Source of the DNA: Owenia fusiformis
Lineage: Eukaryota
Reading direction: 5' to 3'
Assembly: GCA_903813345.2 (NCBI GenBank)
Contig: CAIIXF020000001.1
Coordinates: 310,001-374,000, forward strand
Length of the DNA stretch: 64,000 nucleotides
A model generated the notes under the pieces. The model saw only the letters and a list, made by a program, of their open reading frames with translations. It did not search any database and was not told the DNA's origin. How positions within the stretch are numbered: the first letter of the stretch is position 1; every line of letters begins with the position of its first letter. The translations under genes and the position numbers were made by a program. Shown here piece by piece: positions 586 to 59,439 of the stretch.

Positions 586-1480
586 GGGTATAGGTACTAC
601 ATTTGCCTGAACATGCCCAAACATGTCTGGGTTATGATTATTTACTTGCACATTCTTCGGGTATAGGTACTACATTTGCCTGAACATGCCCAAACATGTC
701 TGGGTTATCATTATTTACTTGCACATTCTTCGGGTATAGGTATTACATTTGCCTGAACATGCCCAAACATGTCTGGGTGATCATTATTTACTTGCACATT
801 CTTTGGGTATTACATTTGCCTGAACATGCCCAAACATGTCTGGGTTATCATTATTTACTTGCACATTCTTTGGGTATAGGTACTACATTTGCCTGAACAT
901 GCCCAAACATGTCTTGGTGATCATTATTTACTTGTACATTCTTTGGGTATTACATTTGCCTGAACATGCCCAAACATGTCTGGGTGATCGTTATTTACTT
1001 GCACATTCTTTGGGTATTACATTTGCCTGAACATGCCCAAACATGTCTGGGTTATCATTATTTACTTGCACATTCTTTGGGTATAGGTATTACATTTGCC
1101 TGAACATGCCCAAACATGTCTGGGTTATCATTATTTACTTGCACATTCTTTGGGTATAGGTACTACATTTGCCTGAACATGCCTAAACATGTCTGGGTTA
1201 TCATTATTTACTTGCACATTCTTTGGGTATAGGTACTACATTTGCCTGAACATGCCCAAACATGTCTGGGTTATCATTATTTACTTGCACATTCTTTGGG
1301 TATAGGTATTACATTTGCCTGAACATGCCCAAACATATCTAGGTGCATAATTATTTACTTGCACATTCTTTGGAAAGGTACTAAATTTACCTGAACAAAC
1401 AACATATCTGGGTGATCATTATAATTACTTGCTCATTGTTTGGGAAGTAAAGGTACTACATTTACCTGAACATGCCCCAA
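586..1480. repeat. Tandem repeat, 73/67-bp unit, about 12 copies, overlapping the donor of exon 1466-1660
   Basis: Unit GGGTATAGGTACTACATTTGCCTGAACATGCCCAAACATGTCTGGGTTATCATTATTTACTTGCACATTCTTT; period 586 to 659. Confidence 0.95.
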
Positions 1481-1660
1481 CTGTTCCAATCCAATTGTTG
1501 TTGGCCTGACAGACCACTACAGTCTCTATTAGCCCTGTCTTGAACCTGCCATTGCCATTACATCTGAACTTAGCTTGGAAACCTGTGGGGTAGTAACTCT
1601 GGGTGTTGGACAGGAATGTCCCTGAGGCCTTGGGAAGCTCAGATTGGGGACAACCAATAG
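1466..1660 (-). CDS. Exon: Sushi 1 of module 5
   Basis: IGCPQSELPK...FRCNG...VVCQANNNWIGTVGACS; AG/GT flanks; 195 bp. Confidence 0.85.
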
Positions 1661-4600
1661 CTGAAAGTGTAAGTCATTTATTTTATCATTTTCATTAATA
1701 ATGAAGGAATAGATACATTTGATTGTTATTCGAATAGAAATAGGATGAAGAATATTTACGTCAAGTATACTATACAGTGTATCAGGATAATTTTGACATA
1801 TATTCAGACTTCATTCTCAATATTGTTGAATCAACTGCAATTTGCCCTTTATTTTGGGGACTATTATGCCTTTCTAACAATGATCCTCCTCCCTCTTAAC
1901 AAGTACATGTACTTACATCTGTATGTCAGCCAGAAGCCCTTTTCAGTCTCTGCAAACAAACTATCTGTGATTGGTGCAATGCCAGTCTTAAATGTCACTG
2001 AGAATGTGTTTGACGTTGTCTCTAGTTCTAGACTCAAATCATTATTCTTGCCACAGAACACAGCATCTGAGCCATCATCACTTAAAACATTGTCAACCTT
2101 TAAGCTGTCAAGTTTGCAGTTTGCAGAGTCCCTCATTTTAAGTTCCTGGATTTGAATCCTAGCTCTCATTCCAGGTGGGATGTTCACATCAAACTTACAC
2201 ATCTCATCTTCCTCATAGTCTTCTCTTGGGTAGCCTGGACTTAGGATGTCTCCTGTACGTTCTGTATATTTGCCTCCACAGTTCGGTATAGCTGCAATAA
2301 TGTAACTTGTATTAATACAACATAAAGTCTTCTCTTGGGTAGCCTGGACTTAGGATGTCTCCTGTACGTTCTGTATATTTGCCTCCACAGTTCGGTATAG
2401 CTGCAATAATGTAACTTGTATTAATACAACATAAAGTCTTCTCTTGGGTAGCCTGGACTTAGGATGTCTCCTGTACGTTCTGTATATTTGCCTCCACAGT
2501 TCGGTATAGCTGCAATAATGTAACTTGTATTAATACAACATAAAGTCTTCTCTTGGGTAGCCTGGACTTAGGATGTCTCCTGTGCGATCTGTATATTTGC
2601 CTCCACAGTTTGGTATAGCTGCAATAATGTAACTTGTATTAATACAACATAAAGTCTTTTCTTGGGTAGCCTGGACTTAGGATGTCTCCTGTGCGTTCTG
2701 TATATTTGCCTCCACAGTTCGGTATAGCTGCAATAATGTAACTTGTATTAATACAACATAAAGTCTTTTCTTGGGTAGCCTGGACTAAGGATGTCTCCTG
2801 TACGTTTTCTATATTTGCCTCCACAGTTTGGTATAGCTGCAATAATGTAACATGTATTAATACAACATAAAGTCTTTTCTTGGGTAGCCTGGACTAAGGA
2901 TGTCTCCTGTGCGATCTGTATATTTGCCTCCACAGTTTGGTATAGCTGCAATAATGTAACTTGTATTAATACAACATAAAGTCTTCTCTGGGGTAGCCTG
3001 GACTAAGGATGTCTCCTGTGCGATCTGTATATTTGCCTCCACAGTTTGGTATAGCTGCAATAATGTAACATGTATTAATACAACATAAAGATTTCTCTTG
3101 GGTAGCCTGGACTAAGGATGTCACCTGTACGTTCTGTATATTTGCCTCCACAGTTTGGTATAGCTGCAATAATGTAACTTGTATTAATACAACATAAACT
3201 CTTCTCTGGGGTAGCCTGGACTAAGGATGTCTCCTGTACGTTCTGTATATTTGCCTCCACAGTTTGGTATAGCTGCAATAATGTAACTTGTATAAATACA
3301 ACATAAAGTCTTCTCTGTGGTAGTCTGGACTTAGGATGTCACCTGTACATTCTGTTATATTTGCCTCCACAGTTCTAGCTGCAATAATGCAACATGTATT
3401 AATAAAACATAAAGTCTTCTCTGGTGTAGCCTGGACTGAGGATGTTCCTTTGGTATATTACATAGCCACGATAACTGACTTAGATTTCTTCAGTCCAAGG
3501 ATTTTTATTGAGGCACCCCATATTTCTCTTTTTTAATTTATGAAGGTGATCTCATCATGTTGAAGGTGATAAATCATGTTTACATGCCTTACACATACCT
3601 AAAAAGTCCAGTTTGAATCCTTTGGCTGTTCCCACCTTTGCACCAGTCTCCAGCTCAACACAAATCTCTTCCACTGTGGAAAACAACTCATCTGGGAAAT
3701 CAGATGTCGGTGACGTAGAATTATAAGACCTCATTAGTACATCTGGATTGAGGAAATCATCTTCGAAACATGAATCACTATCATATATCTTGAAATAGTC
3801 ACCATCATTCAGTTCTAGTTCACTCATTGTAACTTTGGCCCTGTAGTTGTATGGGACCTCAATTGAGTGTGTGCAGCGTGTGTTGCCAGAGTTAGGGGGG
3901 TAAGCGTTGGGGTAATTGGGGGATAGGATTCTCCCCTTGAGACCTGATATGATGTAGTTGCACTTAGTGACTGTGGTAGGTGTTGTCATACCCCCTGTCA
4001 CCGGAGACACTGTTGTGAATGTTGCAGCTGTAACATAGAGAGAAATTGTCATGTATTGCAGACAGATATGTTGATAGTACCATACATTTGACATGTGATA
4101 TCTAATGATTCCATCAGTATTAAAGTCTATGCCAAAATGGATTGCATTTTTGGGTCACCAAGTTTACCTGTGCAGGCAGTGACCACTGAAGACCATGTGC
4201 CATCATCCCTACAGGTGATTGTTAGAGTTGACCGTCCATTAATGGTGAACCCAGCATCACATGTATAAGTGGCTATATTCCCGGGTCTATATCCGCGCAC
4301 AACCACTTTACCATTCTTAATTGTCTTCAAAGGTCCTGGACATTGAGCCACTGAAAGATATACAGAAATCAGTCAGGGCTTGCATTAACGGCGTCCCGTA
4401 CATGTTAAGGACTCAAAAATAATTTGGAGGACGCAAAAATTGAAAATATTTCCGTTTTTTGGACGCAAAATTTTTTTAGGTCAATACTACAATGTGTTTA
4501 CAACGATACCTAACAAAAACAAATAATTATGATCTCTCACCTTTATTTGAATCGTAAATAAGGCTCAACATGTTGAATATTTACAAATAATCATGATTCT

Positions 4601-16600: not shown

Positions 16601-19600
16601 TTTTAATTATGGGGTTTCCTCACAATTTAACTCCATTGTTTCTCTGTAACATTAAGTTTAATACAACAAACAACATTTAAAGCCCTCTCTTACACAGACA
16701 CAAACAAACACCACTATTCACTTCGCAAACCACACAAAAAGTTTATAACGCAAAATTGCAAAAATATTCAGCTCAATACATTACGCATTTGATACAGGTC
16801 ATGGGGCGGGGGGGGGGGGGGGGGGGGGGGGGGTCGTTGGGGTCATGTGAATCCCCCACCCCCTTGCCAAGATTCTTTCAAAATCATACAGTTTTCACCA
16901 ATCTGAGCACTGTCAAGTGATTTTTGGCCAACACTATCAATTTTGACCCCCTTGGTACGTTGTTTTGAAAATTGACCCCCTGAGCTCAAACTTATTACGA
17001 GCCTGTAATATACCAGAAATATTGCTCAGATTTCATCTGACAAATCACTTATAATAAATTAGGAAATAACATGCATTATGTAAATGATACAAGTAGTATT
17101 AAGCCATATTAAACAAAGTTAAAACTTGTATTCTTTCACATTTCACAATTCATGTGTTTTCTGTTATCCATATGATATCTGAGACAAACACTCGTGATAA
17201 ACAACAGAGATTAGCCCGTGCAATACAATTGTTTCTATTAGAATTGGACGATTTCTGTTTATAACAGCTGGTTTTATTAATCATTCTTTGTTTTCCGTTT
17301 CAATATATACATATACAAAAGGTGCAAGATTCGGTATGTTTAATTGATAATGTAATAATGCAAATAAAGAAACGGGCGCATTTCACATTTATTGCAAATG
17401 TTTCATCTGACAAATTGATGATTATGTTTTGAGTAAATTGGTGCATGGAAGAACAAACTGATGCAAATAACATACAGTATGGACATACAGCTATGTCAGA
17501 GCAATATGATAAGTAAGACTTTAATCCCTAATTATTCAATTTCTATAAAATGAGTTTCGTTAACACTGATAACTCATCTGTTATTAATTTCCTACAGCCA
17601 ACGATTCTAAGTTCCACAAAAAATAATTTGCAAATTAAGTTTTTTATATTTATTTGATTGTATATTATCCCGGGGATAATATACAATCAAATAAATATAA
17701 AAAACTTAATTTGCAAATTATTTTTTGACCCCTATGTTATGATTAACATTGTGTTAAAATTTGGATTCAATCGATCAATTCATTGGAAAAATAATTTTTT
17801 AATTCTTAATTAATAAGTTTTCCTCACATGTTTACTCTATTGTTTCTCTGTCACACCAAGGTTACAATAAAAGACATTTAAATCCCCCTCTTATATTACA
17901 CAGGCACAACCACCTGTATTCACTTTGTCAGCCACACAGAAATGCTCAATATTCAACTAAATACACATTATGCATTTTATACAGGCCCGCACCTAGCGAC
18001 CCATCCCCTTGGCCAACAATTCTTTCAAGATCATGCAGTTTTTCACCATCTCGTACATGTATTGACATGTCAGAGCAATATAAATAAATCTTTAATCCCC
18101 AAGTATTTAATTTCTTATGACATGAGTTTTGTTCACTGATAACTAATCCGTTTGTTATGAGTTAAAGGATTAATATCTACAGCCGATGGTTCCACAGAAA
18201 AATAATTTGCAAATTAAGTTTTTCTAATTTATTTGATTCTTTAGTGTCCCTCTTGCTATGATTAATATTGTGTTAAAATTTGGAATTAATCGATTCACTC
18301 ATTCAAAAGTTAATTTTTTAAGTTTTAATAAATGACTTTTCTTCACCTTTAATCCACAGTTATTACCCAAATGTTGAAAGAAACAGTGAAAGGTTAAACT
18401 AGGCTCATGAGTATGTTTCAATTTGAGACATAGTATGTGATGTGCTCCAGGTACATCAGTATATTAAAAAGTTCAATTTGGCGCATTAGTATAGTTCAAT
18501 TTGGCGCATTATTTATGATGTTCAAAGTACATCCTTACAGTGAAAGATTAAACTTGGCTCATGAGTATGTTTCAATTTGGGGCATAGTATGTCCTGTGCT
18601 CCAAGTACATCAGTATTTTAAAAAGTTCAATTTGGCGCATTAGTATATATCAATTTGGCGCGCTATTTATTATGTTCAAAGTTCATCCTTGTATTGAAAG
18701 GTTAAACTTGGCTTATGAGTAGGTTTCAATTTGGGAATAGTCTGTGACATGCTCTAAGTTCATCAGTATATTGAAAAGTTCAATTTGGCGCATTGGTATA
18801 GTTCAATTTGGCGCGTTATTTATGATGTTCAAAATACATCATTATATTGAAAGGTTAAACTTGGCTCATGAGTATGTTTCAATTTGGGACATAGTATGCT
18901 ATATGCTCTAAGTTCGTCAGTTTATTAAAAAGTTCAATTTGACGCATTATTCATGATGTTCCACAAAGTACATCCTTACATTGAAAGGTTAAACTTGGCT
19001 CATGAGTATGTTTCAATGGGACATAGTATGTGATGTGCTCCAAGTTCATCAGTATATTAAAAAGTTCAATTTGGCGCATTACCATAGTTCATTATGATGT
19101 TCAAAGTACATCCTTACATTGAAAGGTTAAACTTGGCTCATGAGTATGTTTCAATGGGACATAGTATGTGATGTGCTCCAAGTTCATCAATATATTAAAA
19201 AGTTCAATTTGGCGCATTATCATAGTTCAATTTGGCGCGTCATTTATGATGTTCAAAGTACATCCTTACATTGCAAGGTTAAACTTGGCTCATGAGTATG
19301 TTTCAATTTGGGACATAGTATATGATGTGCTGTAAGTTCATCAGTATATTAAAAAGTTCAATTTGGCGCATTAGTATAGTTCAATTTGGCGCATTATTTA
19401 TGATGTTCAAAGTACATCCTTACATTGAAAGGTTAAACTTGGCTCATGAGTATGTTTCAATTTGGGACATAGTATGTGATGTGCTCCAAGTACATCAGTA
19501 TATTAAAAGTTCAATTTGGCGCATTAGTATAGTTCAATTTGGCGCATTATTTATAATGTTCAAAGTACATCCTTACAATAGAAGGTTAAACTTGGCTCAT

Positions 19601-22600
19601 GAGTATGTTTCAATTTGGGATATAGTATGTGATGTGCTTCAAGTACCTTAGTATATTGAAAAGTTCAATTTGGCGCATTAGTATTGTTCAGTTTGGCGCA
19701 TTATTTATAATGTTCAAAGTACATCCTTACATTGAAAGGTTAAACTTGGCTCATGAGTATGTTTCAATTTGGGACATAGTATGTGAAGTGCTCTGACTTC
19801 ATCAATATATTAATAAAAAGCTCAATTTGGCGCATTAGTGTAGTTCAATTTGGCGCATTATTTATGATGTTCAAAGTAAATCCTCACATTGAAAGGTTGA
19901 ACTTGGCTCATGAGAGTATGTTTCAATTTTGGACATAGTATGTGATGTGCTCCAAGTACATCAGTATTTTAAAAAGTTCAATTTGTCGCATTAGTATTTA
20001 TCAATTTGGCGCATTTTTTATGATGTTCAAAGTCCATCCTTACATTGAACGGTTAAACTTGGCTCATGAGTATGTTCCAATTTGGGACTCAGCATATGAT
20101 GTGCTCTCAGTTCAATAGTATATTCAAAAGTTCAATTTGGCGTGTTAGCATAGTTCAATTTGGCGCATTATGAACATCATAAATAATGCGCCAAATTGAA
20201 CTATACTAATGCGCCAAATTGAACCTTTTAATATACTGATGAACCTACAGCACATCACATACTATGTCTCAAATTGAAACATACTCAGGAGCCAAGTTTA
20301 ACCTTTTTAACCATTTTATTCATGATATTGTAAAATATTATAACTACTGTATGCTATGTAATTGACAAATATATTGAAATATATGCATATTTTATACTTA
20401 AACTTTGTGTTTTGTTCTGTATCGTTTTGTGAACACTTGTTGATAAGGTTGATCCGTACTATTATATATGTTATAGATTGTACATGTAACCTAATGATTT
20501 GCATACAAAAATAAGTTTTTGTTCAGCGCAATCCCTCATCCTTCATAATATTTAATCCCGGGGATTTTATACCGATTCCTTATTGTATTTCATACATTTG
20601 AATATTGTTTTCTTTTTTAAAATTTAAAATGCATCATCATCATCAACTTCTGCCACATAATTATACAACAATTAATTTTCCTCCAGATGGCTTCACTCTA
20701 AACCTCCGAACCCCCTCCCTGACTAGGGGTCTAATTTGTCATAGGAAAGTCAGGATTGTCTCAATTTAAAACTGACAAAGAACAAAGATATCACGATACG
20801 CTTTACCTCATTTTAATTTAAATACACCGAAATTGCTGCTGATTTTTGGTAAGACTAAAAACAAACTTCAAATTAATACGCGCTTATTTTACTCAAAATG
20901 GAGAATAAATAATTTACCGATTTATATTTGAAATATACCCAAATTTTTTATTCCACTTTTTGTATTGACTTACATTTTTAAAATTCATTTAAAGTTCATC
21001 TAAAATCATATACTTCAACATCATAAAATTTTAAATGAGATCTCAGACATTAAGTTTGATTAAGCTTTCTCAAGTGAAATGCATGATTTTATTTGTTTAC
21101 ATTAGCGCTTAATTGAAAAATAAAATAGGATTAACTCCAAGCAAATTAAGGCACATCAAAGAATATATAGCCTCGCGTATAAGAGGCGTATAGTTTGTTT
21201 TTGGATTACGTAATACATACTATACTCATCTTTTCTATGTACTTATATCCTACTATTCCTGGCTCTTAAGAATAATCGGAGAATAGTTCAAACGATATTT
21301 AGTATCGTAGAGTATATACCACCAATACTAAATGTTCCGATTCTGAGGCAAGAATAGTTTGTTTCCCATACCGAATACAATATAGTGAGGACATACTGAA
21401 CTATATTCACAAATAGTTTGCCACTTATACGCTACCATATTTGGCTTTTTGCACAGTGCGATTTGATTGGTTGATTCTGTTGTTGTCACAGCAAAGTGAG
21501 TAGCGCAAAGGCGGGGCAGGTGGAGTAACTGCACTTATTTTTGCATGTTTCAATTATTTTAAAAAGAGATTGTATCATGTTTATTACTCAAACTGGACAC
21601 TGAAACATCTTTATAACTATGAGCTCGAAATACTTTGCCAATTAATCAATTCATTCTACATAATTTCATCAATTTTGAACAAATAATCTGTGCCTCCTGA
21701 CCCATTTTTCAAATATTCTACTGAATCCATCCTGACTCATTTCCAAGTTTCTTGAACATGGCAGTCGCTCACTATTCAATTCTACTTTGCGAAGGCACCA
21801 TTTTGAAATTTGAAATAAAATGGACTGTGACTGATTGGTATTAACCAATGTCAAACAGAAAAAAATCCTGGAAAATCCCATTGAATATCATCAAATCTCA
21901 CAACCACCTAGAAAAATCTTTTTGACCATTTTTACCAGGCCAAATCTAAAGTCAGATTTGAATTTCTGAGAACTTGTGGATGATTTTGAGAGAAAAGTAA
22001 GCCAATTTCAAGCAAGTTGAAAAAATACCTTTTTGACCTGTTTTGACCTTGAGAAGGTCATTGAAGGTCAAATCTATAGTCAGAGTTGAACTTCTGAGAA
22101 CTTGTAGATGATTTTGAAAAAAATTAACAATGATGCTTTATACAACAAATTTGGTCAATTTAAAGCAAGTTGAAAAAATAACTTTTTGACCTTTCTTGAC
22201 CTTGAGAGGGTCATTGAAGGTCAAATCTATAGACAGATTGGAACTTCTGAGAACTCGTAGATGATTTGAAGAAAAGATTAGGACAAATTGAAAAAATACC
22301 TTTTTGATCCTTTTTTAACCTTTTTGACCTTCTGAAGGTCATTGAAGGTCAAATCTTAAATCAGCTATGAACTTCTGAAAACTTATAGATGATTTTGAAA
22401 AGAAATTGAAGTCAGTCTAAACAGTATTTGATATTCTTAAACATGTTCTTCAGGTTGGATAATCAAATCACAAAAACTTCTTTTTTAGGTTGTGAAAAGA
22501 AAAAATTTTTTTTGAAGTATTTGATATGTTATTGGAAGTTGTACGAATTTGTTACAGACGACACCTGCCAATCTTAAACCTTTTTTGACCTTGAAAAGGT

Positions 22601-28600: not shown

Positions 28601-31600
28601 TGATTTTCTCGGCTGTCATTTTTATCCACTCTTGGATATTGCCGATCTCCACTCATTCGCTGCGCTCACTCGTGGAGATGAGCGATATCCACTCATGGAT
28701 AAAAATGGTATCCCTCAAAAATCATAGGATATCCTCTATATATTTGAAGAACCCAGTCATCAAAATTGACTGTTCCATGATGAATAAAGTTAAATTATAA
28801 CATATACATATTAAAATGGTTAACTTCATTTATACAAGTACTGCAACAATCTCCTTCAGATGGAGAAATGTTCTTGTACTTACCTATACAGTAAGGTGCT
28901 TGTCCTGTCCACTTGCCACTGCTCTGGCATGTCCGCTGTTTGTTACCCTCCAGGGCATAGCCAGTCTGGCAGGTATAGTTCACCACACTCCCCACAGAGT
29001 TACCATTCAACACAAACTTGGAGAATGGTCGCTTGTAGGGGTAGGGGCAGGTCACTCCTATAATTTAAAAATGAACAAAATAAGTATTTATCAAATGGTA
29101 CCTCACCTAAGTTGACTTTTACCTCTAATGTGGCCTTGACCTCACAACCTTAATATATAACATAGGAATTCAAAACCATAATTATGATAAATCCCAAAGT
29201 CAATCTGACTTCACAGCAATTATGAATCAACCTTCCCAAAATTTACAATGTACAGAGTGGGTAGCACCTAGTATGACTTACTTCTACAATATGGCACTGA
29301 ACCTCCCCACTGGCCACTCTCCAGGCAAGTCCTTCTAATGTTGCCCTGAACCACATAACCAGAATTGCATGTGTAGACTGCAGTGTTCCCATACTTCAAA
29401 CCATCAACTGTCACTGCACCATTGAAGATATTCCCTAGTGTTGGACAAGTCAGGGCTGAAGATGAACATAATGTATGTATTATCATTTTGAATAAACCTG
29501 TAAGCAATGCGTAGAACTTAAAATTAGTGATTTCTTAGTTTACTCAACAGGGTGCTAAATCTTAACACTGTTTTCATCAAAATATTTGAATATTACAATT
29601 TCCAGTAGGTGACAATTTATTGGCTGAAGCACTTGGTTGCTCCAATGCTTGGGAGGCAACCCAATTCAAAAATAGGGTAGGGCACTGCTAGCTTAATATA
29701 ATAGCTAGATGTTTTAAATTGTCTTCTTACATATACAACTAGGCTGTGTGCCGGTCCACTCTCCACTGGTCTGACATGTCCTAGCTGCATCACCGGACAA
29801 TCTAAAGCCAGCATCACACTTGAAGGTTATTTTCTGGTTAAATTTGAAGTCATCTCCAATCCTCTTGCCATTCACAGGATCCCCAGGGTCTCCGCATTGG
29901 CCTGGGGGTGCTACAAAAAGAATATTTAATATATCAAATGACCAGAAATTAAAGGGCCCCTTAGCCAAGACTAAAATTGAAAAAATAAGTAATGAATTTT
30001 GTGTTCTCAAATAAATGTTCATCATCAAAAATTGTCAAGATGGGGTAAAATAACATAATTGAGATTTCTGTTACGTTTAAGAAATGGAAAAGATGTCATA
30101 GTAGAGAAAAGTGAAGCACTTTGTAGTTATGACCTCATAGACACATGGGAATTGGGAAAGATGCCATGAAAGAGAATATTGTGATAATGTGTACTTTCGA
30201 CATCAGAGACACATTGCGATTGGGTAAGATACCATGAAAGACAATAGTGTGACAATACAATGTGTACTTACAACCTCATAGACACATGGGAATTGGGAAA
30301 GATGCCATGAAAGAGAATAGTGAGACAATACAATGTGTACTTACAACCTCGCAGACACATGGGAATTGGGAAAGATGCCATGAAAGAGAATATTGTGATA
30401 ATGTATACTTTCGACATCAAAGACACATTGCGATTGGGTAAGATGTCTTAATAGAGAATAGTGTGACAGTGTGTACTTACGACCTCCTGTGCACTTGGGT
30501 ATTGGGCCTGACCACTGTCTATTGAAGCCACATGTCCTGATAGAGGAGCCTTGTAGAGAATAGCCAGGAAGACAGGTGTATGTAGCTTTGCTCCCAATCC
30601 CTGAACCAGTGATTTTAACATTGCCATTTGCTGGTTTTCCAGGATTACCACAGCCAGATACTAAAACGCAAACACACAATTATCTACTTGATATTTATAA
30701 ACTAAACTATTTTAAACAAAACTCAAAATAAACACTTTTGGTATAACAGAGAATCAGATGTTCATTACTTTTTGAAAAACATACATGACATTCAATACAA
30801 CATGACGCTCTCAAGAGCATATATGTTGGTTTTAACTGGACAGAAATGAGACAGTGCCACTCAAAGAGTGAGACGAATAGAAATGGAGTAAAGAAATACC
30901 TGAGAATGGCACCGGCTAAAGTCTGTTGGAAATCATTTAAAAATGGGGGACAAGGACATAGGGCAAAAGAACAAGTATTAGCAGCTCCTAAGTTTATGAT
31001 ATATAGAAGTTAAGACAGAATGCAGCTGAATGCAGATTTCAAATTGAGAGTGAGGCCGCTTGTAGAATATGAGATATAGAGTTCCAAATTTGCTGACCTT
31101 GAACTTTCACTGAATAGAGGCCAATATTTGTTCTGAACTCGAAGGCATGAATATCATGTGAATGTCTTGTTTGATATCAACGAATGTCAACATTTAACAT
31201 AAAATAGTTCTCAAAAATCTTTCGGTGGACTGATATATAAGACACAAAAAATGTTGCAGCCATCAAGTTCTCATGAAATAAGTCTACTTACATTCACAAT
31301 CCTCTGCCTGTCCCGACCATGTCTTGTCATCTCTACACCTGAATGTTCTCTCAACAACACCGCTGGGGAATTTATATCCTTGACTGCACATATAGCGCAC
31401 AATGTAGCCATTGTCATATGAGTCACTAGGGTTAGCCACAGCAGCATTGCTAAGCTTGGGCAGGTCAGATGTTCTGCATCCAATAGCTGAAAATAATGAT
31501 ATAGTGGTACATGTATATCAGATATAGATGGCGTGTTGTCTATAATATTGCATGCAAAACAAGACATTTCATACAGATACAGAGACTGAGTGGTCCAAAA

Positions 31601-34600
31601 ATTGTTGTATTTTTCATATTACATACATTTTTTCATCTATGTATACTTATTTAATTTGAAATCGGGATACACATACCTCTATACTGTCCCCAGAATCCCT
31701 TTTCTCCAGTGAGTCCAAATATTGTCTTGAAGGTAATAGTTGCATTGTTAGAAACACTCTCCAAAGGTGCTACCTTGCCTTTGCCACATAACCTTCCGAT
31801 GTTATTTGTTATATTCACCATTCCTCTGAACTCCACATGGTCTTGGAGGCAATTCGTTGAAGATTTGACAGCAAATTCTAAAAAGGTAACCCTGGCACGT
31901 TGTCCCTCTGGGAGGTCAAGCTGCCATGTACATGTAGAGGATGGGCTATAAAGGTAGTAGGGGTAGCCAGGACTTAAGAAGTCTCCCTGCTGATCAGATA
32001 ACTTTCCACCACAATCAGCCATATCTAAAATAACATTGAAAAATTACAATAAATTCATATCAAGAATAGAATATCAGAAATATTGGAGGTGGTAAAAAAC
32101 ACTGTCAAGAATAGCATATCAGAATTATTGGATCATGTCCATGTATTTGAGGTGGTAAAGATCACTGTCAAGAAAAGCAAATCAGAATTATTGGATCATA
32201 TCCATGTATTTGAGGTGGTAAAGATCACTGTCAAGAATAGCAAATCAGAATTACTGGATCATGTCAATGTATTTGAGGTGGTAAAGATCACTATCAAGAA
32301 TAGCATATCAGAATTATTGGATCATGTCCATGTATTTGAGGTGGTAAAGATCACTGTCAAGAATAGCATATCAGAATTATTGGATCATGTCCATGCATTT
32401 GAGATGGAAAAGATCACTGTCAAGAATAGCAAATCAGAATTATTGGATCGTGTCCATGTATTTGAGGTGGTAAAGATCACTATCAAGAATAGCAAATCAA
32501 AATTATTGGATTATGTCCATGTATTTGAGGTGGTAAAGATCACTATCAAGAATAGCATATCAGAATTATTGGATTATATCCATGTATTTGAGGTAGTAAA
32601 GATCACTGTCAAGAATAGCATATCAGAATTATTGGATCCTGTCCATGTATTTGAGGTAGTAAAGATCACTGTCAAGAATAGCATATCAGAATTATTGGAT
32701 CCTGTCAATGTATTTGAGGTAGTAAAGATCACTGTCAAGAATAGCATATCAGAATTATTGGATCCTGTCCATGTATTTGAGGTAGTAAATATCACTGTCA
32801 AGAATAGCATATCAGAATTATTGGATCATGTCTATGTATTTGAGGTAGTAAAGATCACTGTCACGAATAGCATATCAGAATTATTGGATCCTGTCCATGT
32901 ATTTGAGGTGGTAAAGATCACTATCAAGAATAGCAAATCAGAATTATTGGGTTATGTCCATGTATTTGAGGTAGTAAATATCACTGTCAAGAATAGCATA
33001 TCAGAATTATTGGATCATGTCCATGTATTTGAGGTGGTAAAGATCACTATCAAGAATAGCAAATCAGAATTATTGGATTATGTCCATGTATTTGAGGTAG
33101 TAAATATCACTGCCAAGAATAGCATATCAGAATTATTGGATCATGTCCATGTATTTGAGATGGTAAAGATCACTGTCAAGAATAGCAAATCAGAATTATT
33201 GGATTATGTCCATGTATTTGAGGTAGTAAATATCACTGTCAAGAATAGCATATCAGAATTATTGGATCATGTCTATGTATTTGAGGTGGTAAAGATCACT
33301 GTAAAGAATAGCAAATTAGAATTGTTGGATCATGTCCATGTATTTGAGGTGGGAAAGATCACTGTCAAGAATAGCATATCAGAATTATTGGATCATGTCC
33401 ATGTATTAGAGGTGGTAAAGATCACTGTCAAGAATAGCATATCAGAATTATTGGATTATGTCCATGTATTTGAGGTAGTAAAGATCACTGTCAAGAATAG
33501 CATATCAGAATTATTGGATCATGTCCATGTATTTGAGGTGGTAAAGATCACTGTCAAGAATAGCAAATCAGAATTATTGGATCATGTCCATGCAGTTGAG
33601 ATGGTAAAGATCACTGTCAAGAATAGCAAATCAGAATTATTGGATCATGTCCATGCAGTTGAGATGGTAAAGATCACTGTCAAGAATAGCATATCAGAAT
33701 TATTGGATCCTGTCCATGTATTTGAGGTAGTAAAGATCACTGTCAAGAATAGCATATCAGAATTATTGGATCATGTCCATGTATTTGAGGTGGTAAAGAT
33801 CACTGTCAAGAATAGTATATCAGAATTTTTGGATCATGTCCATGTATTTGAGGTGGTAAAGATCACTGTCAAGAATAGCAAATCAGAATTATTGGATTAT
33901 GTCCATGTATTTGAGGTAGTAAATATCACTGTCAAGAATAGCATATCAGAATTATTGGATCATGTCCATGTATTTGAGGTGGTAAAGATCACTGTCAAGA
34001 ATAGCAAATCAGAATTATTGGATTATGTCCATGTATTTGAGGTAGTAAATATCACTGTCAAGAATAGCATATCAGAATTATTGGATCATGTCCATGTATT
34101 TGAGATGGTAAAGATCACTGTCAAGAATAGCAAATCAGAATTAATGGATCATGTCCATGTATTTGAGATGGTAAAGATCACTGTCAAGAATAGCAAATCA
34201 GAATTATTGGATTATGTCCATGTATTTGGGTGGTAAAGATCACTGTCAAGAATAGTATATCAGAATTATTGGATCATGTCCATGTATTTGAGGTGGTAAA
34301 GATCACTGTCAAGAATAGCATATCAGAATTATTGGATCATGTCCATGTATTTGAGGTGGTAAAGATCACTGTCAAGAATAGCAAATCAGAATTATTGGAT
34401 CATGTCCATGTATTTGAGGTGGTAAACATGACCTCCAAGGTTCTCATGATTGAAACTCAGTACCTCTAAAGGTCAAAGAGAATCCCTTTGCATCAAGTGA
34501 AGCAGCGTTCCTTGTCATCTTAATACACATTGCAGTGCCAACTGGGAATATGACATCTGGGAAGTTGGTGTTCTTGTATGTGTATGTTCTGATCTTAGTA

Positions 34601-37600
34601 TTTGGAGCATCTAGCCAATCTTCATAGCATTTATCACTCTGGTACACCTCAACAGTGTCCTAGAATAACAAATATTATTAGACTTGAATATCAGTGATCT
34701 TCTCAGTATTGAAACACCTAAGCACATGTGCAGTAAAACATGTATACCAAAACATCTTTCTATTCTGAACACCTGAACAGGTTCATTTTTCTAATCTGCC
34801 ATAGACTTCTTTGTTAAATAACTAGAAATGTGAATATCTGCTGAACACCCTTGTCTGGTCTTAGGGCCTCTATATATATGAAATTGTTTTGGTTCAATTT
34901 TTGTTATTTGCCATAGACTTCATTGTTAAATAACTAGAAATGTGAATATCTGCTGAACACCTTTGTCTGGTCTTAGGGCCTCTATATATGTGAAATTGTT
35001 TTGGTTCAATTTTTGTTATTTGCCATAGACTTCATTGTTAAATAACTAGAAATGTGAATATCTGCTGAACACCCTTGTCTGGTCTTAGGGCCTCTATATA
35101 TATGAAATTGTTTTGGTTCAATCTTTCTTATCTGCCAAAGACTTCATTGTTAAATAACTAGAAATGTGAATATCTGCTGAACACCTTTGTCTGGTCTTAG
35201 GACCTCTGTATATATGAAATAGTTTTGGTTCAATCTTTCTAATCTGCCAAAGACTTCATTGTTAAATAACTAGAAATGTGAATGTCTGCTGAACACCTTT
35301 GTCTGGTCTTAGGGCCTCTATATATGTGAAATAGTTTTGGTTCAATCTTTCTAATCTGCCATAGACTTCATTGTTAAATAACTAGAAATGTGAATATCTG
35401 CTGAACACCTTTGTCTGGTCTTAGGGCCTCTATATATGTGAAATAGTTTTGGTTCAATCTTTCTAATCTGCCATAGACTTCATTGTTAAATAACTAGAAA
35501 TGTGAATATCTGCTGAACACCTTTGTCTGGTCTTAGGACTTCTATATATATGAAATTGTTTTGGTTCAATCTTTCTAATCTGCCATAGACTTCATTGTTT
35601 AATAACTAGAAATGTGAATATCTGCTGAACACCTTTGTCTGGTCTTAGGGCCTCTATATATGTGAAATTGTTTTGGTTCAATTTTTGTTATTTGCCATAG
35701 ACTTCATTGTTAAATAACTAGAAATGTGAATATCTGCTGAACACCCTTGTCTGGTCTTAGGGCCTCTATATATATGAAATTGTTTTGGTTCAATCTTTCT
35801 AATCTGCCAAAGACTTCATTGTTAAATAACTAGAAATGTGAATATCTGCTGAACACCTTTGTCTGGTCTTAGGACCTCTGTATATATGAAATAGTTTTGG
35901 TTCAATCTTTCTAATCTGCCAAAGACTTCATTGTTAAATAACTAGAAATGTGAATGTCTGCTGAACACCTTTGTCTGGTCTTAGGGCCTCTATATATGTG
36001 AAATAGTTTTGGTTCAATCTTTCTAATCTGCCATAGACTTCATTGTTAAATAACTAGAAATGTGAATATCTGCTGAACACCTTTGTCTGGTCTTAGGGCC
36101 TCTATATATGTGAAATAGTTTTGGTTCAATCTTTCTTATCTGCCATACTTCATTGTTAAATACTTGAAATGTGAATGCCTACTGGGATAAGGGGCGTACA
36201 AACAGATACTTGTCCCACTGTACTGTACCCAGATGGGGAATTGAATAGTTGTGACACAATACTACTTTTGAAAACATTGATGTTCTTGAATAGTAATTAG
36301 AAATATAGATTTATGACCACCTACCCCAGGGTTCATCTCAAGTGCAGACATTGTAGCTTTGATTCTCCTTCCCTTTGCGCCTGTGATGGTCCACTGGCAG
36401 CTTGTTCCCTTACCATATGGCTTTGGATACCCTGGACTGGTCACTACACCAGCTTTCTGTCCACTTATTTTAGCTCCACAGCTTGAGACTGTGAAAATCA
36501 AAATTTGACGTTCAAACAAATTGTTACAATTTTACAATATACAGGGTGACAAAAAAAAACTGGAACCCATAAATCATCAACTTTCTCGGAAAGTATTATA
36601 CCTACATTCTTCATTTCTTCAGGGTAGAAACTAGACTGAATGCATAACAAAATGACACAACAATGAGTACTGTAGCTTAGATATTAATCATGCCATGGAC
36701 GACAGAAGAAAAGACTTATATTGTGAGAAAGTATATCGAGACAAAATCCTATAAAGAGACACAAACTGCCTCTATGAGAGATCATAGGGCAAGAAGAGCC
36801 CCTTGCAAGTCACAGATCTTTAGGCTTGTACAGAAGTTTGATTCAGAAGGAACTGTAAAACCAACAAAGAAGAAAGGTGACGGTAAACGAACCTATTCGG
36901 GGAGAGAGAGAGGTCTGTCAGAACTTAAGACAACTCAACAGTCAACTCAGCACGTTACATCCCTAACGTTCAAAAGTTTTGGAGAGCGCTGGGAAGACAA
37001 GGTGACTTGAGAAGGGACCAGCAATGGTTCCAACAAGATGGTGCCACACCCCACACCTCAAATGAGTTCATTCGATGGCTTCAGGCTCACTGTGGTGATC
37101 GATTAATCAGTCACCATACTCGCCACATCTGCCCCCCCTCCCCTGATTTGAACCCCCCAGATTTTTATCTGTGGGGGTATCTCAAGGATAATGTGTAAAC
37201 AGATAGTCCACTGACCATTGATGACCTCAAACTCAACATTGGAAGACTAATTAGAGATATAGACAGAGATGAATGCAGTAGGGTCATTGACAATTTTGCA
37301 AGAAGAATCCAGCTCTGCATTTAACGTCATGGTGCACATTTGGAGCACATTATCTTATCGTCCCTCATTTGGAGACTAATTGAGCTACAATGCTAAAACT
37401 TTATCATCTTGTCATACATTCAGTTGACTATACATGTACCAAATAACTAAGCTCAATATGCATCATTGAAGAAGTTATTAAGACTTAAGTGGGTTCCAGT
37501 TTTTTTTTGTCACCCTGTATTTTGTTTTCATCATTTCATTTCATTCTATTCTGCATCTTAAATCTACAATTACACCTTAATTAATTTTGCAGAAAATAAA

Positions 37601-40600
37601 ATTAGGATTGTTAGGAAAACATTGGCATGTTTTACGTTCTGTTTAATTTGTACAGTATTCCTTACAGGCACACCACTGGTAGAAATATCATAGTGTGCAT
37701 TATGAAAAGTATATGTCGAAAATCTCAATTACTTTGAATTCTAGATCACTCAATAAATGTTATGTTAGGCATGTTGCATACTTACATGTAGGAAGTGTTG
37801 TGGTTGACATGACCATCTTGGTTGTTGTCTTAAAAGTCGTCATGGTAGTTGTGGCTAGAATCATGAAATGAAAATATGTACATGTCTGTATTCTGATTCA
37901 AATTAACAATAGTACATACTAATAACTCGAATGTTCAAATTAAAATTGTACTATGTAGATCTGGGCTGTGTCTCTACAGCATTCAAAGATGAATTTAATT
38001 GAAGGAGGGTGTAATGGGAGGACCAGATTGTCTCTTTATTGTTCTTATTGAAGGAGGGTGTAATGGGAGGACCAGATTGCCTCTTTATTGTTCTTATTGA
38101 AGGAGGGTGTAATGGGAGGACCAGATTGCCTCTTTATTGTTCTTATTGAAGGAGGATGTAATGGGAGGCCCAGATTGCCTCTTTATTGTTCTTATTGAAG
38201 GAGGGTGTAATGGGAGGACCAGATTGCCTCTTCATTGTTCTTATTGAACAAGGGTGTAATGGGAGGACCAGATTGCCTCTTAATTGTTCTTATTGAGGGA
38301 GGGTGTAATGGGAGGACCAGATTGCCTCTTTATTGTTCTGATTGAACAAGGGTGTAATGGGAGGACCAGATTGTCTCTTTATTGTTCTTATTGAAGGAGG
38401 GTGTAATGGGAGGACCAGATTGCCTCTTTATTGTTCTTATTGAAGGAGGGTGTTATTGGAGGACCAGATTGTCTCTTTATTGTTCTTATTGAAGGAGGGT
38501 GTAATGGGAGGACCAGATTGTCTCTTTATTGTTCTTATTGAAGGAGGGTGTAATGGGAGGACCAGATAGTCTCTTTATTGTTCTTATTGAAGGAGGGTGT
38601 AATGGGAGGACCAGATTGCCTCTTTATTGTTCTTATTGAAGGAGGGTGTAATGGGAGGACCAGATTCTCTCTTTATAGTTCTTATTGAAGGAGGATGTAA
38701 TGGGAGGACCAGATTGCCTCTTTATTGTTCTCATTGAAGGAGGATGTAATGGGAGGACCAGATTGCCTCTTAATTGTTTTTATTGAACAAGGGTGTAATG
38801 GGAGGACCAGATTGTCTCTTTATTGTTCTTATTGAAGGAGGGTGTAATGGGAGAACCAGATTGCCTCTTTATTGTTCTTATTGAAGGAGGGTGTAATGGG
38901 AGAACCAGATTGCCTCTTTATTGTTCTTATTGAAGGAGGGTGTAATGGGAGGACCAGATTCTCTCTTTATAGTTCTTATTGAAGGAGGATGTAATGGGAG
39001 GACCAGATTGCCTCTTTATTGTTCTCATTGAAGGAGGATGTAATGGGAGGACCAGATTGCCTCTTAATTGTTTTTATTGAACAAGGGTGTAATGGGAGGA
39101 CCAGATTGTCTCTTTATTGTTCTTATTGAAGGAGGGTGTAATGGGATGCCCAGATTGCCTCTTTATTGTTCTTATTAAAGGAGGGTGTAATTGGAGGACA
39201 AGATTGCCTCTTTATTGTTCTTATTGAAGGAGGGTGTAATGGGAGGACCAGATTGCCTCTTTATTGTTCTTATTGAAGGAGGATGTAATGGGAGGACCAG
39301 ATAGTCTCTTTATTGTTCTTATTGAAGGAGGGTGTAATGGGATGCCCAGATTGCCTCTTTATTGTTCTTATTGATGGAGGGTGTTATGGGAGGACCAGAT
39401 TGCCTCTTTATTGTTCTTATTGAAGGAGGGTGTAATGGGAGGACCAGATTGCCTCTTTATTGTTCTTATTGAAGGAGGGTGTAATGGGAGGACCAGATTG
39501 CCTCTTTATTGTTCTTATTGAAGGAGGGTGTAATGGGAGGACCAGATTGCCTCTTAATTGTTCTTATTGAAGGAGGATGTAATGGGAGGACCAGATTGCC
39601 TCTTAATTGTTCTTATTGAAGGAGGGTGTAATGGGAGGACCAGATCGCCTCTTTATTGTTCTTATTGAAGGAGGGTGTAATGGGAGGACCAGATTGTCTC
39701 TTTATTGTTCTTATTGAAGGAGGGTGTAATGGGAGGACCAGATTGCCTCTTTATTGTTCTTATTGAAGGAGGGTGTAATGGGAGGACCAGATTGCCTCTT
39801 AATTGTTCTTATTGAAGGAGGGTGTAATGGGAGGACCAGATTGCCTCTTAATTGTTCTTATGGAAGGAGGGTGTTATGGGAGGACCAGATTGCCTCGTTA
39901 TTGTTCTTATTGAACAAGGGTGTTATGGGAGGACCAGATTGCCTCTTAATTGTTCTTATTGAAGGAGGATGTAATGGGAGGACGAGATTGCCTCTTTATT
40001 GTTCTTATTGAAGGAGGGTGTAATGGGAGGACCAGATTGCCTCTTTATTGTTCTTATTGAAGGAGGGTGTTATGGGAGGACCAGATTGCCTCTTCATTGT
40101 TCTTATTGAACAAGGGTGTAATGGGAGGACCATATTGCCTCTTAATTGTTCTTATTGAAGGAGGATGTAATGGGAGGACCAGATTGCCTCTTAATTGTTC
40201 TTATTGAAGGAGGATGTAATGGGAGGACCAGATTGCCTCTTTATTGTTCTTATTGAAGGAGGGTGTTATTGGAGGACCAGATTGCCTCTTCATTGTTCTT
40301 ATTGATGGAGGGTGTAATGGGAGGACCAGATTGCCTCTTTATTGTTCTTATTGAAGGAGGGTGTAATGGGAGGACCAGATAGTCTCTTTATTGTTCTTAT
40401 TGAAGGAGGGTGTAATGGGATGCCCAGATTGCCTCTTTATTGTTCTTATTGAAGGAGGGTGTTATTGGAGGACCAGATTGCCTCTTTATTGTTCTTATTG
40501 AAGGAGGGTGTTATTGGAGGACCAGATTGCCTCTTATTGAAGGAGGGTGTTATTGGAGGACCAGATTGCCTCTTAATTGTTCTTATTGAACAAGGGTGTA

Positions 40601-43600
40601 ATGGGAGGACCAGATTGCCTCTTTATTGTTCTTATTGAAGGAGGGTGTAATGGGATGCCCAGATTGCCTCTTTATTGTTCTTATTGATGGAGGGTGTAAT
40701 TGGAGGACAAGATTGCCATATACATGTAGTTCATTGTTTTCAGCTCTTTGTGTTCTCATTGAAGGAGGGTGTAATGGGATGCCCAGATTGCCTCTTTATT
40801 GTTCTTATTGAAGGAGGGTGTTATTGGAGGACCAGATTGCCTCTTTATTGTTCTTATTGATGGAGGGTGTAATGGGAGGACCAGATTGCCTCTTTATTGT
40901 TCTTATTGAAGGAGGGTGTAATGGGAGGACCAGATAGTCTCTTTATTGTTCTTATTGAAGGAGGGTGTAATGGGATGCCCAGATTGCCTCTTTATTGTTC
41001 TTATTGAAGGAGGGTGTTATTGGAGGACCAGATTGCCTCTTTATTGTTCTTATTGAAGGAGGGTGTTATTGGAGGACCAGATTGCCTCTTAATTGTTCTT
41101 ATTGAACAAGGGTGTAATGGGAGGACCAGATTGCCTCTTTATTGTTCTTATTGAAGGAGGGTGTAATGGGATGCCCAGATTGCCTCTTTATTGTTCTTAT
41201 TGATGGAGGGTGTAATTGGAGGACAAGATTGCCATATACATGTAGTTCATTGTTTTCAGCTCTTTGTGTTCACATGGAAATGTGTGCTTCCCATGATCTC
41301 TGTGGTAATTTTATTTTAATATGAGGTACACTATGTTCAGATTCATATGATGATTGTATACATGAGATTTCTAACATTTACAATTGAGGAGATTGTATTC
41401 AAATTTATCAGAGATCTAGATTCGGAGATTATTCCCACTTCTATTTTGCATTCATATTTACAGATGGATAGATTGTTAAGTAATGGATAGAATATTATGA
41501 TTTTAAGAGTTTGAACTCAGAATGAAGTCATGGTAAAATGTTCACTTATAATCCTCCATGTCTCCCTATAGCATTGTAGAGCATCCATAGCCAGTTACAA
41601 AAATATGTAAATATGCTGTGTTTATTTTCCGTGTTTGTTGTTTTACCTTCCTTGCAAGACAATTTTCAATTTTGACCTGACGGAAAACAAAGAATTTAAG
41701 TCAATTGGCCTTATCGAAGTCTCAGACCATTATAAATGCAAAACATTTTGGTTGACTTTACGATCATAGTCACAGAGACTACCCCTTTATGCGTATGTAT
41801 AATGTGACTGAAGTACCTGGTGGGGGTTGTGTGGGGTCACCTGGGGAACAGTCTCTTACATCAGAATCCCATCTCCCATCAGAACCACAAGTCACAGTAA
41901 AGTTCTGTCTCAGTTGAATATTGTAGCCAAACTTACAGTAGAATGTCACAGTGTCTCCATAGTAGTCACCAGTTTGTACAGCTTTGGAGTTCTTGGTATC
42001 AAGGCTAAACACTTTGCATTTCACCACTGTAACAATGTTAACAAATAGTGACTGCCATTTAGGGCAATAGTAAAAAATCATTTCCTCAATTTTCAAAAGG
42101 AAAATGCATTCATCATTTACACTACTTTGAAAAATAAGGGATGTGGTACTGACAAGGAAAATACATGTTCACAGCAATCAAAATATTAAGGAGTCACCTA
42201 AATGGATGGTTCTATCTTCAATTTCCACATTTTCAGATTTTTTGACAATTCTGAGTTAAAAGATATAAACACCTATTGTAAAATACCATTATACTTACAT
42301 TTGCAGTAAGGTGCTTTTCCTGTCCATTGTCCAGTTCCCCCACATGTCCTGGAAGAAGCTCCTTCTAAGACATACCCGCTCTGACATGTGTAGTTAACAG
42401 TGCTACCATATGAGTTCCCACTCAGCACAAAATCTGAGAATGGTCTCTTGTATGGATAGGGGCAGAGTATTACTGAAATAATTAAACCCTTAAGGTGTAA
42501 TAAAATACATTTTTAGCATGATTTGAAACTTGCTCCCATGCTTTATTCCTGATAATTTCATTTAGACGATTATTCATCCATATTCTGCAAAGCCTTTTTC
42601 AGTAAAAGTGTGATTAATTTTTTTAGAGTTGGCCATTTGATTAAAGCAATTAATAAACAGAATATCAGCCATAGTGTATACTGACATAAATGAGACAGAA
42701 AGTGTAATAGTTCTGAATGTACCTCTACATGTGGGTGGAGAACCATCCCATGAGCCAGTCTTGCCACATCTTCTTACTGATCCTCCTCTCAGCTTGTACC
42801 CCTCATTACAACTATAGGTAGCAGTATTACCAAATGCAGTGCCATCTATCTTCACCTGACCATATAAAGGTGGAGTCAAGTTGCTTGGGCATTTGACACC
42901 TAAAAATAAAGTAAGAAATATGTAGGATATATTAGATTCTAGGTATACAGAAGAATCAAGGAGATGTAATAATTAAATTGACTTTACCATAACCTGTAAC
43001 ACCGCAATCTCCAAATCAACAGAAAGTATAAAATGCATTGTAAAAGCTACATGTATGAAAAACTTATTCGAGTCTCTTGGTTGAACATCAGGGCATTTGG
43101 AACAATGTGTACTTAAGAAAAATTCTATTTTAAAAATATTCTGCTATTTTTTAAAACATCTGTTGTTAACTTTATCTTAATGCTGAATAGTGAAAAAACA
43201 AGATGGCCGTTATAACTGAAAGTTTGTTATGAAGTACAGAATTGTAGCAATGTTGTTATTTTATGCAATAACAGAAGTTTAAAACAAGTGCTCCTAAAAG
43301 GTAATGTAAAGGCAGATCTTCCAGGATAACAATACAAAACAACCTCAAATTTAGATTATGTGTAGCTACTAGACCAATGTCACACCACAAGTGTGAGGTA
43401 ACATATTTTACATGACCATTCTCATACCAGAAAGTGGAAAAATCTGACCATTCCAATACCTCAAAAGTAATAATTTTAGGGGGCATTCTCATTCCAGATC
43501 CAGATCTAATGCCAGTGGTGGTGTTAAGTTTGAGGTAAGAAATATGTGTGGCCTGAGATGGCTTTGGCACTAGATAAGGCTTTTCTTGAAAGCCCCATGG

Positions 43601-49600: not shown

Positions 49601-52600
49601 GGTGGGCCAAAAACAACACTTAACCCAAGTTTAAAGATGAATATCATTTATGCTAGATATATCATTTTAAAGATAAATCATTTGCTAGAAATATGACACC
49701 ATCTGATTGAAATTTTTTATTGCGGAGTTAGAGGCTAAAATTAACAGCAAGGGTGTCGAGAGCGACCAAAAAATCCAGAAGCACTCGTTGGCATAGACTG
49801 CGCCCTCAAAACCCGGGTTTGACGTCATCCAAATACGCCTTTCCAAAAAAAAGCGAACGGGCATTATTACTCCACAAGAAAACAGAGGTTTTTCAATCGG
49901 ATGGTGTCATATTGTTAGGAGATGATTTATCTTTTAAAATGATATATAACATATAACATGGTTTAAGATATATCATATGAATCTGTAAACTTGGATATAT
50001 TGTTTCTTTGGTCCACCCTGTAAAACACATTTGGGATTTCATTTGTAATTTCAGTATTGCTCTACCTATACATTTATCCAGCATTCCTGACCAGGATCCG
50101 TCATTTTTGCATTGTAGGATCGTCTCAGCTTTTCCCGTAGAAAGCTTATAACCTGTATTGCATTGGTATTTTACAATGTAACCATAGGAATAATACGGCC
50201 CTTGGTTCATTATAGCACCATTGCCCAACTGTGGAAGGTCTTTGGAGGGACAGCCAATAACTGAAACCATGAAACACATTTGTGAATCGAACACACAATA
50301 ACGCAAGGACTACAGCCCATTTCAATGATTTATTGCGTCAGTAAAACCCCAAAAATAAGAAATCAGGAGACCATTTTGCTATAACATATACAAGTATATT
50401 CATATTGTACTTGAATGACAATTGTATATTTCAGATTATTTAGTTTTTTTGTACAATAAGCCTATGCCCTCTTGTAATTTAAAAAATTTCAGCCATGTTA
50501 ATCTTATTGAAAATAACATGGCAGGGAAGCATCCAAATATAAGAGGCCACACACTTTATTAGCTAAACTAGAAGCAATCCAAGATAAACAAATGTCATTT
50601 ATGTACAAGACGTAAATTCGAATCTTCCCAGTATTGATTTGCCTACCTGTGTATGAAAGCCAGAATCCTTTGTCAGAGAATATGGAATCATCTTCAGCAT
50701 TGAAGGTCACATTGACTGTGCTACCGATGCTTGTCAGTGGCGCCACCTTTAAGTTGCCACACAACCGTAGCTGGCTGTTAGGATCATTTGTTCCAGCAAC
50801 GGCGTCAAGCAGAAGGTAATCAACTTTACAATTTGTTGATTTCAAAATCTTGATCTCCTGAATATTGATTTCTATTTTCTGGCCTGGTTCTGCTTTGATT
50901 ACCCATCTACATGAGAGAAGTGGGTAGTCATCTGGGTAGTCGGGACTTAGGATGTCGCCTTCTTTGCTGGTAAGTTCACCCCCACATCTGGGGAGAGCTG
51001 GAACAGAATCGGGGAAACATGTACTTAAATAACCAGGGAATCACCAACTTCACAGAATCACGAAATCGCCGTAATGAGATGTTATAGTTGGGCAAAGGAG
51101 CACGTAGTTTATCGCAAACAATTTCAGAAGGTTATATCTTGGATTATGACTATTTTCTGACCATGAAGACAAGTTTATCTTTTAGATCAATTCATTATCT
51201 CAAAGAAAATTATATACAGTGATAATAAAGTCAAACAAACACGGAGATATTTAACTAGCAATCAACCCATCAACACACTTTTTCAAAGATGGTGACCCCA
51301 TTTTCACCAAAAATGCAATCATTTTTTACAATGTGTAATGAACATGTCTCAAAGCACACTCTAATTGTGCATTCAACAATATAATAAAAGGTTGCATTTT
51401 TGGTGAAAATTAGGTCAACATTTTTGAAAAAGTATGTTGATTGGTCCATTGTCCCTTCAATATCACTTAGGTCTGATTAACTAAATTATCATTATATATA
51501 CTTTTCTTGAAGATAATGAATGGATCTAAAAGATACACCCATGTTCATGATCAGAAAATATTTATTGGACACCCTGTAGTATTATTTAAACAATTATTAT
51601 ATGAATTCTCAATTATGTTTAGTTTCTTAGTAAATTGAATATGGTATGTGTTTGAGGATACAAATCATATGGACATAATAAAATGTGTCTTTTTTATGAG
51701 TATGAAATATCAAGAAAATCCTTTTTAAGAGCTGGTTACAAACATATTTTATTAACAGGTTGGAAAATATTGAAGCCTTTGGTACATTATTTGTTATGTT
51801 GTCTGAGTTTGTATTCGCAAACTTTGAATTTTGTCTAAAAATCATCATTACTATGCCCGTGCATCTAAGGTTGTAAATGTGGACAATATCTTTGAAATGG
51901 CTCTAAAGATAAAAGTTTGGAGATTCATATTGGGTGATTTTTCCGCATTTGGAGCATCTTTTTAAATGGCCATAAAATCGTGTCCACAAAATGTAGACCA
52001 ATGAAACTTCCCTGTATGAATATAACTGAGTACCCAATGTGCCTTAGTTTGTGAAATATCAAAATCCAAAATGGCCGTTAATTATCCGCACTGAGCACAC
52101 ATGATATCCGCAACGCTTGTTTTCGTATAGCACAGTCTGCATAGAGTGATAAAGTTTTGGTAGATTAAAGTAAATTATACATAAATACCTATGAAGGCAC
52201 AAACCTTAATATGCTAGGGAAAATACCTGAATATGAAGGTAAATACCTGAATTTGAAAGTAAATACCTGAATATGAAGGTAAATACCTGGATTTGAAGGT
52301 AAACTTGAATATGAAGGTAAATACCTGAATTTGAAGGTAAATACCTGGATTTGAAGGTAAACCTGAATATGAAGGTAAAGATCTGAATTTGAAGGTAAAT
52401 ACTTGTATATTCTAAGATAAAAACCTTGAATATCAAGGCAAATACCTAAATTTACTACGGTAAATATCTCAAAATGCTGAGGTAAATACCCGATCGTGAA
52501 GATGCTAAACTAAATACCCGAATATGTTAAGGTGAAGCCCGTTCCTTTCGGTGGCAGCCTACTCCTTCGTGTAAACTTTATGCAAGCCTTTGTTCCAATG

Positions 52601-59390: not shown

Positions 59391-59439
59391 TTTTCATCAA
59401 AATTTGTCTTTCCACTGCCATATGAAAGAATGTAAATAA

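Follow-up and report, generated by a model that had tools for sequence, protein, structure and literature searches.

Mirage minisatellites at exon–intron junctions of a CUB/sushi mosaic gene in Owenia fusiformis

Tandem arrays whose repeat unit spans an exon–intron boundary recur in a CUB/sushi mosaic gene of Owenia fusiformis. They are mirage minisatellites, a repeat type already known from lancelet and from human F7, and are probably for the most part a neutral by-product of tandem duplication in a short-intron gene with a high minisatellite load. We analysed a stretch of 64,000 nucleotides (the window, C1:310001-374000, C1 being the contig that carries it) from the 499.5 Mb genome assembly. 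A coordinate-based gene model, built from minus-strand open frames and splice candidates, runs on the minus strand from 52874 down to 1466 (38 exons, 8379 nt), with every intron GT..AG and a translation of 2,792 amino acids that contains no stop. Pfam assigns the exons at the five junction arrays described below to CUB or Sushi, the exon ending at 1466 scoring 20.5 bits for Sushi, slightly below the cut-off of 20.7. Left of the window, at C1:212-309 kb, lie 36 more CUB/sushi exons, curated by hand, which may belong to the same gene or to a tandem paralogue, continuity being seen only at the first junction.

Arrays at and between the junctions

The original prediction held that five unrelated tandem repeats of this gene include the neighbouring splice site in their unit. 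Comparing 76 junction 24-mers with the adjacent intron, and counting copies at 17/24 or better, recovers exactly these five sites (5/76); the best intron match among the other 71 is 16/24. The arrays are as follows:

584..1481, minus strand: 73-bp donor mirage, its unit formed by the end of exon 1660-1466 and the intron start
2217..3449, minus strand: 109-bp acceptor mirage whose unit joins 34 nt of intron tail to the first 75 nt of CUB exon 2291-1917
23449..23627, minus strand: 86-bp donor duplication, 2.1 copies, with ~13 nt of exon
30085..30506, minus strand: ~70-bp donor mirage, copies ~80% matching
52190..52527, minus strand: 20-bp donor array, degenerate copies reaching the donor; the weakest case

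The splice sites concerned are, in the same order, GT 1465-1464, AG 2293-2292, GT 23614-23613, GT 30480-30479 and GT 52517-52516. Junction 24-mers are copied at up to 23/24 by the 73-bp array (12 copies), up to 24/24 by the 109-bp array (9 copies), 23/24 by the 86-bp duplication (one copy) and up to 18/24 by each of the ~70-bp and 20-bp arrays (two copies each). The unit clearly spans the junction for the 109-, 73-, 86- and ~70-bp repeats and marginally for the 20-bp repeat, a weak junction array that ends 66 nt short of the donor according to TRF and whose consensus matches its own junction at 16/20, against 15/20 at the best three places elsewhere in the window.

The arrays extend into the intron and form decoy splice sites, as predicted, and most decoy dinucleotides are intact. 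The exception is the 73-bp array, in which the donor position reads GC in 11 of 12 window copies and GT in one (1390-1389); over the whole intron, 18 copies carry a GC donor. This array runs on into L001, left of the window, and fills a 2865-nt intron to within 60 nt of the next acceptor; because it occupies nearly all of that intron, the ancestral intron would have been near 110 nt. It is interrupted twice, by an element with long terminal inverted repeats (L001:8930-9616, read by eye) and by a second insertion from L001:9841 to window 583.

The 109-bp array sets ten decoys upstream of the real AG, all of which keep AG (10/10) and the nearest two of which are identical to the exon. Its decoy acceptors have a median score of 10.7, as against 10.7 for the real site, and the unit read as exon meets an in-frame stop after 29 codons. 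Four reads from another sample carry the joint at which the sequence goes back 109 nt and confirm the tandem, which is no assembly artefact. The 86-bp duplication has a single decoy, GT intact (1/1), 86 nt into the intron; the ~70-bp array has four, with GT in two (at 136 and 209 nt into the intron); and the 20-bp array keeps GT in 7 of 9 decoys, which outscore the real site (7.0 vs 5.3). The exon copies within the decoys hold five synonymous and seven non-synonymous distinct variants, small numbers for judging translation.

Genome-wide searches for the 109- and 73-bp units, with queries of 218 nt and 151 nt, returned only their own arrays and one sister array of the 109-bp unit, and a dispersed mobile repeat is rejected for both units on this ground.

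TRF finds nine long arrays within the gene, five at junctions (5/9) and four comparably large ones that span none and were absent from the original list:

18387..20171, no strand: 154-bp intronic array, ~2.9 kb or more from either junction
32081..34426, no strand: 63-bp array that fills its intron except for 37 and 56 nt next to the junctions, a near miss
34780..36176, no strand: 112-bp array inside an intron, leaving 148 and 120 nt to the flanking junctions
37998..41233, no strand: 49-bp array inside an intron, leaving 583 and 143 nt to the flanking junctions

By eye, the 154-bp array seems to end in an inverted partial copy (window 20170-20300).

The gene has other features of its own. Eight exons are duplicated as a block (window 5058-14209 vs 23079-27635), within which two CUB exons and their common intron are 95-96% identical and the neighbours 71-86%, a pattern that suggests recent conversion. 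A 1081-aa frame at window 10417-13659 (minus strand), with LINE-type endonuclease and reverse transcriptase domains by Pfam, interrupts an intron; the duplicate of that intron, 95-96% identical and located at ~26890-27050, is without the insertion. The modelled donor at window 26669 is weak (GTTCAT), its near-identical paralogue at 9914 reading GTAAAT. Outside the modelled gene, at window 58811-61413, a CGTT-rich tract adjoins a purine-rich (AAGG) tract, both simple repeats.

Further arrays and the overlap expected by chance

Left of the window, the same gene region carries four more mirages on C1:212-309 kb, one of them the sister array treated below and the others being:

C1:219094-221843: 89-bp donor mirage, 31 copies, 29/30 decoys GT
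C1:244697-249383: 68-bp acceptor mirage, 69 copies, 54/68 decoys AG
C1:266691-267307: 43-bp acceptor mirage, 14 copies, 13/13 decoys AG

The region therefore holds at least nine, with up to ~69 copies, and inspection of sampled loci reveals clear mirages in several other genes of this genome. Since most decoys keep GT or AG (10/10, 13/13, 54/68, 29/30), they appear to be tolerated and not purged; purging is rejected as a rule, only the 73-bp array having lost GT, a loss explicable by one change spread through homogenisation. Array content is 34.7% in C1:210-374 kb and 9.7% in 840 kb sampled elsewhere. C1 starts 0.3 Mb from the window, but a subtelomeric hot spot is rejected as a general cause because two other contig-end samples give 6.7% and 7.2% and one interior sample 59.6%.

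Other duplications were seen among the sampled loci. Sushi exons are tandemly duplicated together with intron at L019:3310-4575, in L030 (304-bp period) and at L018:5858-7503, the periods being 354, 304 and 283 bp, and L042 and L043 contain the same intron–exon stretch on opposite strands (C6:8.48 Mb and C6:28.68 Mb).

The prediction further proposed that duplications arise, or survive, preferentially at junctions. The expectation by chance was taken from 456 introns, each array collapsed to one unit, by counting random units that extend across a junction by 6 nt or more. The collapsed introns have medians of 354-519 nt and the units measure 40-120 nt, and with introns this short frequent overlap is expected from geometry. 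In the window, 4/16 arrays overlap a junction vs 2.97 expected (P 0.33), or 5/16 with the 20-bp array included (P 0.11). An independent sample, chosen non-randomly, comprised 1 Mb of sequence from this genome surrounding sushi and fn3 matches, with exons called by profiles, splice matrices and codon bias; on the window this caller, partly trained there, found 32/38 exons (31 exact), and it called 152 exons without a profile match, 20 of them on the opposite strand. At period 30 or more, 13/67 arrays overlap vs 8.5 expected (P 0.047), or 13/34 vs 7.7 in collapsed introns of up to 1500 nt (P 0.015); genes other than the CUB/sushi gene give 9/48 vs 6.9 (P 0.20), and a pooled, global null gives P 0.025-0.095. 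Two overlaps, with periods of 18 and 24, are coding repeats outside these sets, and whole-exon tandem duplications were set aside. Curation, which removed the non-independent sister array, an array with 67% matches and a duplicated locus, leaves 11/65 vs 8.1 (P 0.145), or 11/32 vs 7.3 in collapsed introns of up to 1500 nt (P 0.063).

These figures bear on an alternative in which duplications seed preferentially at or near junctions, with a modest bias beyond geometry that might come, for instance, from breaks linked to transcription or from the step in composition at the borders of exons. In its favour, the independent loci exceed expectation under every null tried, by ~1.4-1.7-fold (P 0.015-0.15 depending on null and curation). 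Ends that just miss a junction are also in excess (10/54 non-overlapping arrays end within 45 nt of one vs 6.4 expected, P 0.048), and at L022, L027, L026 and L021 arrays begin 5-7 nt past a donor or stop 0-2 nt short of an acceptor, with the site itself uncopied. The pooled set missed at least two known junction arrays, so the excess may be understated. Against it, significance goes after curation, several cut-offs were tried, the loci were picked by their sushi and fn3 matches, and the null is too lenient because later insertions lengthen introns. We regard such a seeding bias as unlikely. Junction arrays are common in the sampled loci and largely geometric, with an enrichment, perhaps, of ~1.5-fold at most that is unproven; the marked junction preference first proposed is weakly supported at best.

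Decoy sites and the spliced RNA

Any use of a decoy in the 109- or 73-bp array must bring 2292-2325 or 1392-1465 into the RNA. Among the indexed sequencing runs listed as containing this sequence, none is registered as RNA. Three raw RNA runs (X21-X23) and one contig set (X15) were aligned to window 1330-2330. X15, whose RNA label is a guess although the contig is spliced, yields one 4806-nt contig at a depth of 151 that joins exon 4027-3599 to 2291, 1917 to 1660, and 1466 to the exon that follows in L001, with zero depth on the decoy-only sequence of both arrays; assembled contigs drop rare forms. The raw runs contribute 2, 4 and 0 reads, all within repeat units and none on unique exon sequence. 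The exon-proximal copy, predicted to be the functional one, is thus the site used in RNA at two of the five arrays (109- and 73-bp), a result largely forced by the layout, in which only that copy adjoins the whole exon.

Modelling of decoy choices gives a premature stop in 23/23 valid cases, within 2-65 codons (one of 24 shifts was dropped as not at an AG). No donor in the 109-bp unit is usable, the best score being 1.8. Decoy use would accordingly lose or truncate the protein. Transcripts that take a decoy are probably degraded, and would hence be hidden by decay.

Comparable repeats are known. In amphioxus, PMC3087553 and PMC3902484 describe repeats spanning exon–intron boundaries under the name 'mirage' minisatellites, in Adh3, the globins BflGb6 and BflGb9, troponin C and PGBD5, and report that they leave splicing undisturbed, with no aberrant mRNA. 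The Owenia arrays resemble them in a unit that spans the boundary, in extra copies within the intron and in a mature mRNA spliced at the authentic site; length instability is a feature shown for the lancelet mirages. They differ in belonging to a non-lancelet genome, in numbering at least nine in one gene region with up to ~69 copies, and in the apparent transfer of one array between paralogous exons. For human F7, PMC1557585 describes a 37-bp VNTR in intron 7 whose first unit spans exon and donor, as in the donor arrays here with their downstream donor copies; its account, based on mutagenesis, is that the identical downstream pseudo-donors stay silent even when strengthened and that the most upstream donor is used, through upstream-first scanning. 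F7 has donors only, whereas the Owenia gene region also has acceptor arrays, in which 10 to 54 intact decoys lie upstream and which upstream-first scanning leaves unexplained. In human paralogues, PMC2812944 reports variable internal tandem repeats at exon–intron boundaries, often with alternative transcripts or new introns; the likeness lies in the boundaries of duplicated genes, and the difference in that modelled decoy uses here all bear stops and none was seen in the RNA contig.

The decoys were also proposed as a heritable control of splicing. Under that alternative, a share of nascent transcripts set by copy number would take a decoy, reach a premature stop and be degraded or yield a shortened protein. 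The decoy sites are intact, with scores similar to those of the real sites or, in the 20-bp array, higher; tandem repeats that affect splicing in cis are catalogued in humans according to PMC10078293; and, since all decoys lead to stops, steady-state RNA would under-report their use. Against this stand a contig set in which the normal contig of depth 151 has no decoy-containing companion, the silence of the F7 pseudo-sites and the undisturbed amphioxus mRNAs as those sources describe them, and the loss of GT from nearly all copies of the 73-bp array. We judge this dial very unlikely; a decoy use that rose and fell with the number of copies would amount to a heritable control of expression, which the present data do not support. 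That introns are gained or new exons born by way of these arrays, the raw material for new introns once suggested, is extremely improbable: PMC3087553 proposes that route for amphioxus globins, PMC2812944 links repeats to new introns, and one sushi domain left of the window (L001:8600-8502 and 8200-8123, minus strand) is interrupted by an additional 301-nt phase-1 intron, possibly gained, where window sushi domains occupy one exon each, but the flanks of that intron show no duplication or repeat remnant by eye, and the 109-bp unit lacks a usable donor while all modelled shifts bear stops.

Origin of the arrays and transfer between exons

If, as we think probable, the arrays are mostly a neutral by-product of tandem duplication, their history may be pictured as follows. 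A local duplication of 20-110 bp would start each array, its unit being local sequence, as found for the 109- and 73-bp units. Pre-expansion introns measure only ~110-400 nt, so that, as computed, a sizeable part of such seeds crosses a junction by geometry. One copy would stay joined to the whole exon and leave the protein unharmed, the remainder becoming intron, as the layout suggests. Unequal exchange and conversion would then expand and homogenise the array, to which the identity gradient and the common GT-to-GC change point. The exon-proximal donor would be kept, with the most upstream donor winning as published for F7, and definition of the acceptor would probably depend on a pairing with the donor at the other end of its exon. 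Rare decoy use would run into the computed premature stops, with decay the probable outcome. Finally, as the sister array strongly suggests, one array would have reached a paralogous CUB acceptor, at a distance of 70 kb, through ectopic recombination.

That sister array lies at C1:242323-243169 (L007:2323-3169), at the acceptor of the CUB exon C1:242347, 70 kb from the 109-bp array. It is the only sister in the whole genome, its units are 86-88% identical to the window unit, and the likeness between the two loci is confined to the array. Over exon bases 28-75, the sister unit agrees with the window exon 2291 at 44/48 and with its own exon at 26/48; over bases 1-27 it agrees with its own exon at 26/27 and with the window exon at 22/27. 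The intron tails of sister and window match at 29/34, where other CUB acceptors match at 8-17/34, excepting one recent duplicate pair. On the simplest reading, ectopic recombination carried the array from the acceptor in the window to its paralogue, and conversion with the new exon start followed. The alternative is that the 3' part of the recipient exon was replaced later, and no donor for such a replacement was found in C1:210-374 kb. We consider it very probable that mirage arrays spread between paralogous exons through ectopic recombination, rewriting the recipient acceptor and the first nine codons. A compound scenario, in which arrays spread ectopically and decoy acceptors are also used in proportion to copy number, degrading transcripts and tuning gene output, is very improbable. 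A literature search of titles and abstract openings, subscription journals lying outside it, returned no case of a junction array passing from one exon to a paralogous one.

The gene is an example-rich locus for mirages, and the comparison made here gives a first rough figure, ~1.5-fold at most, for their excess over chance. Its acceptor arrays, with ten intact decoys in the window and 54 in a neighbouring intron, are a ready-made system for testing how a genome with short introns selects the last 3' splice site. The sister of the 109-bp array indicates that mirages are able to transport splice signals, along with codons, from one exon to a paralogous one.
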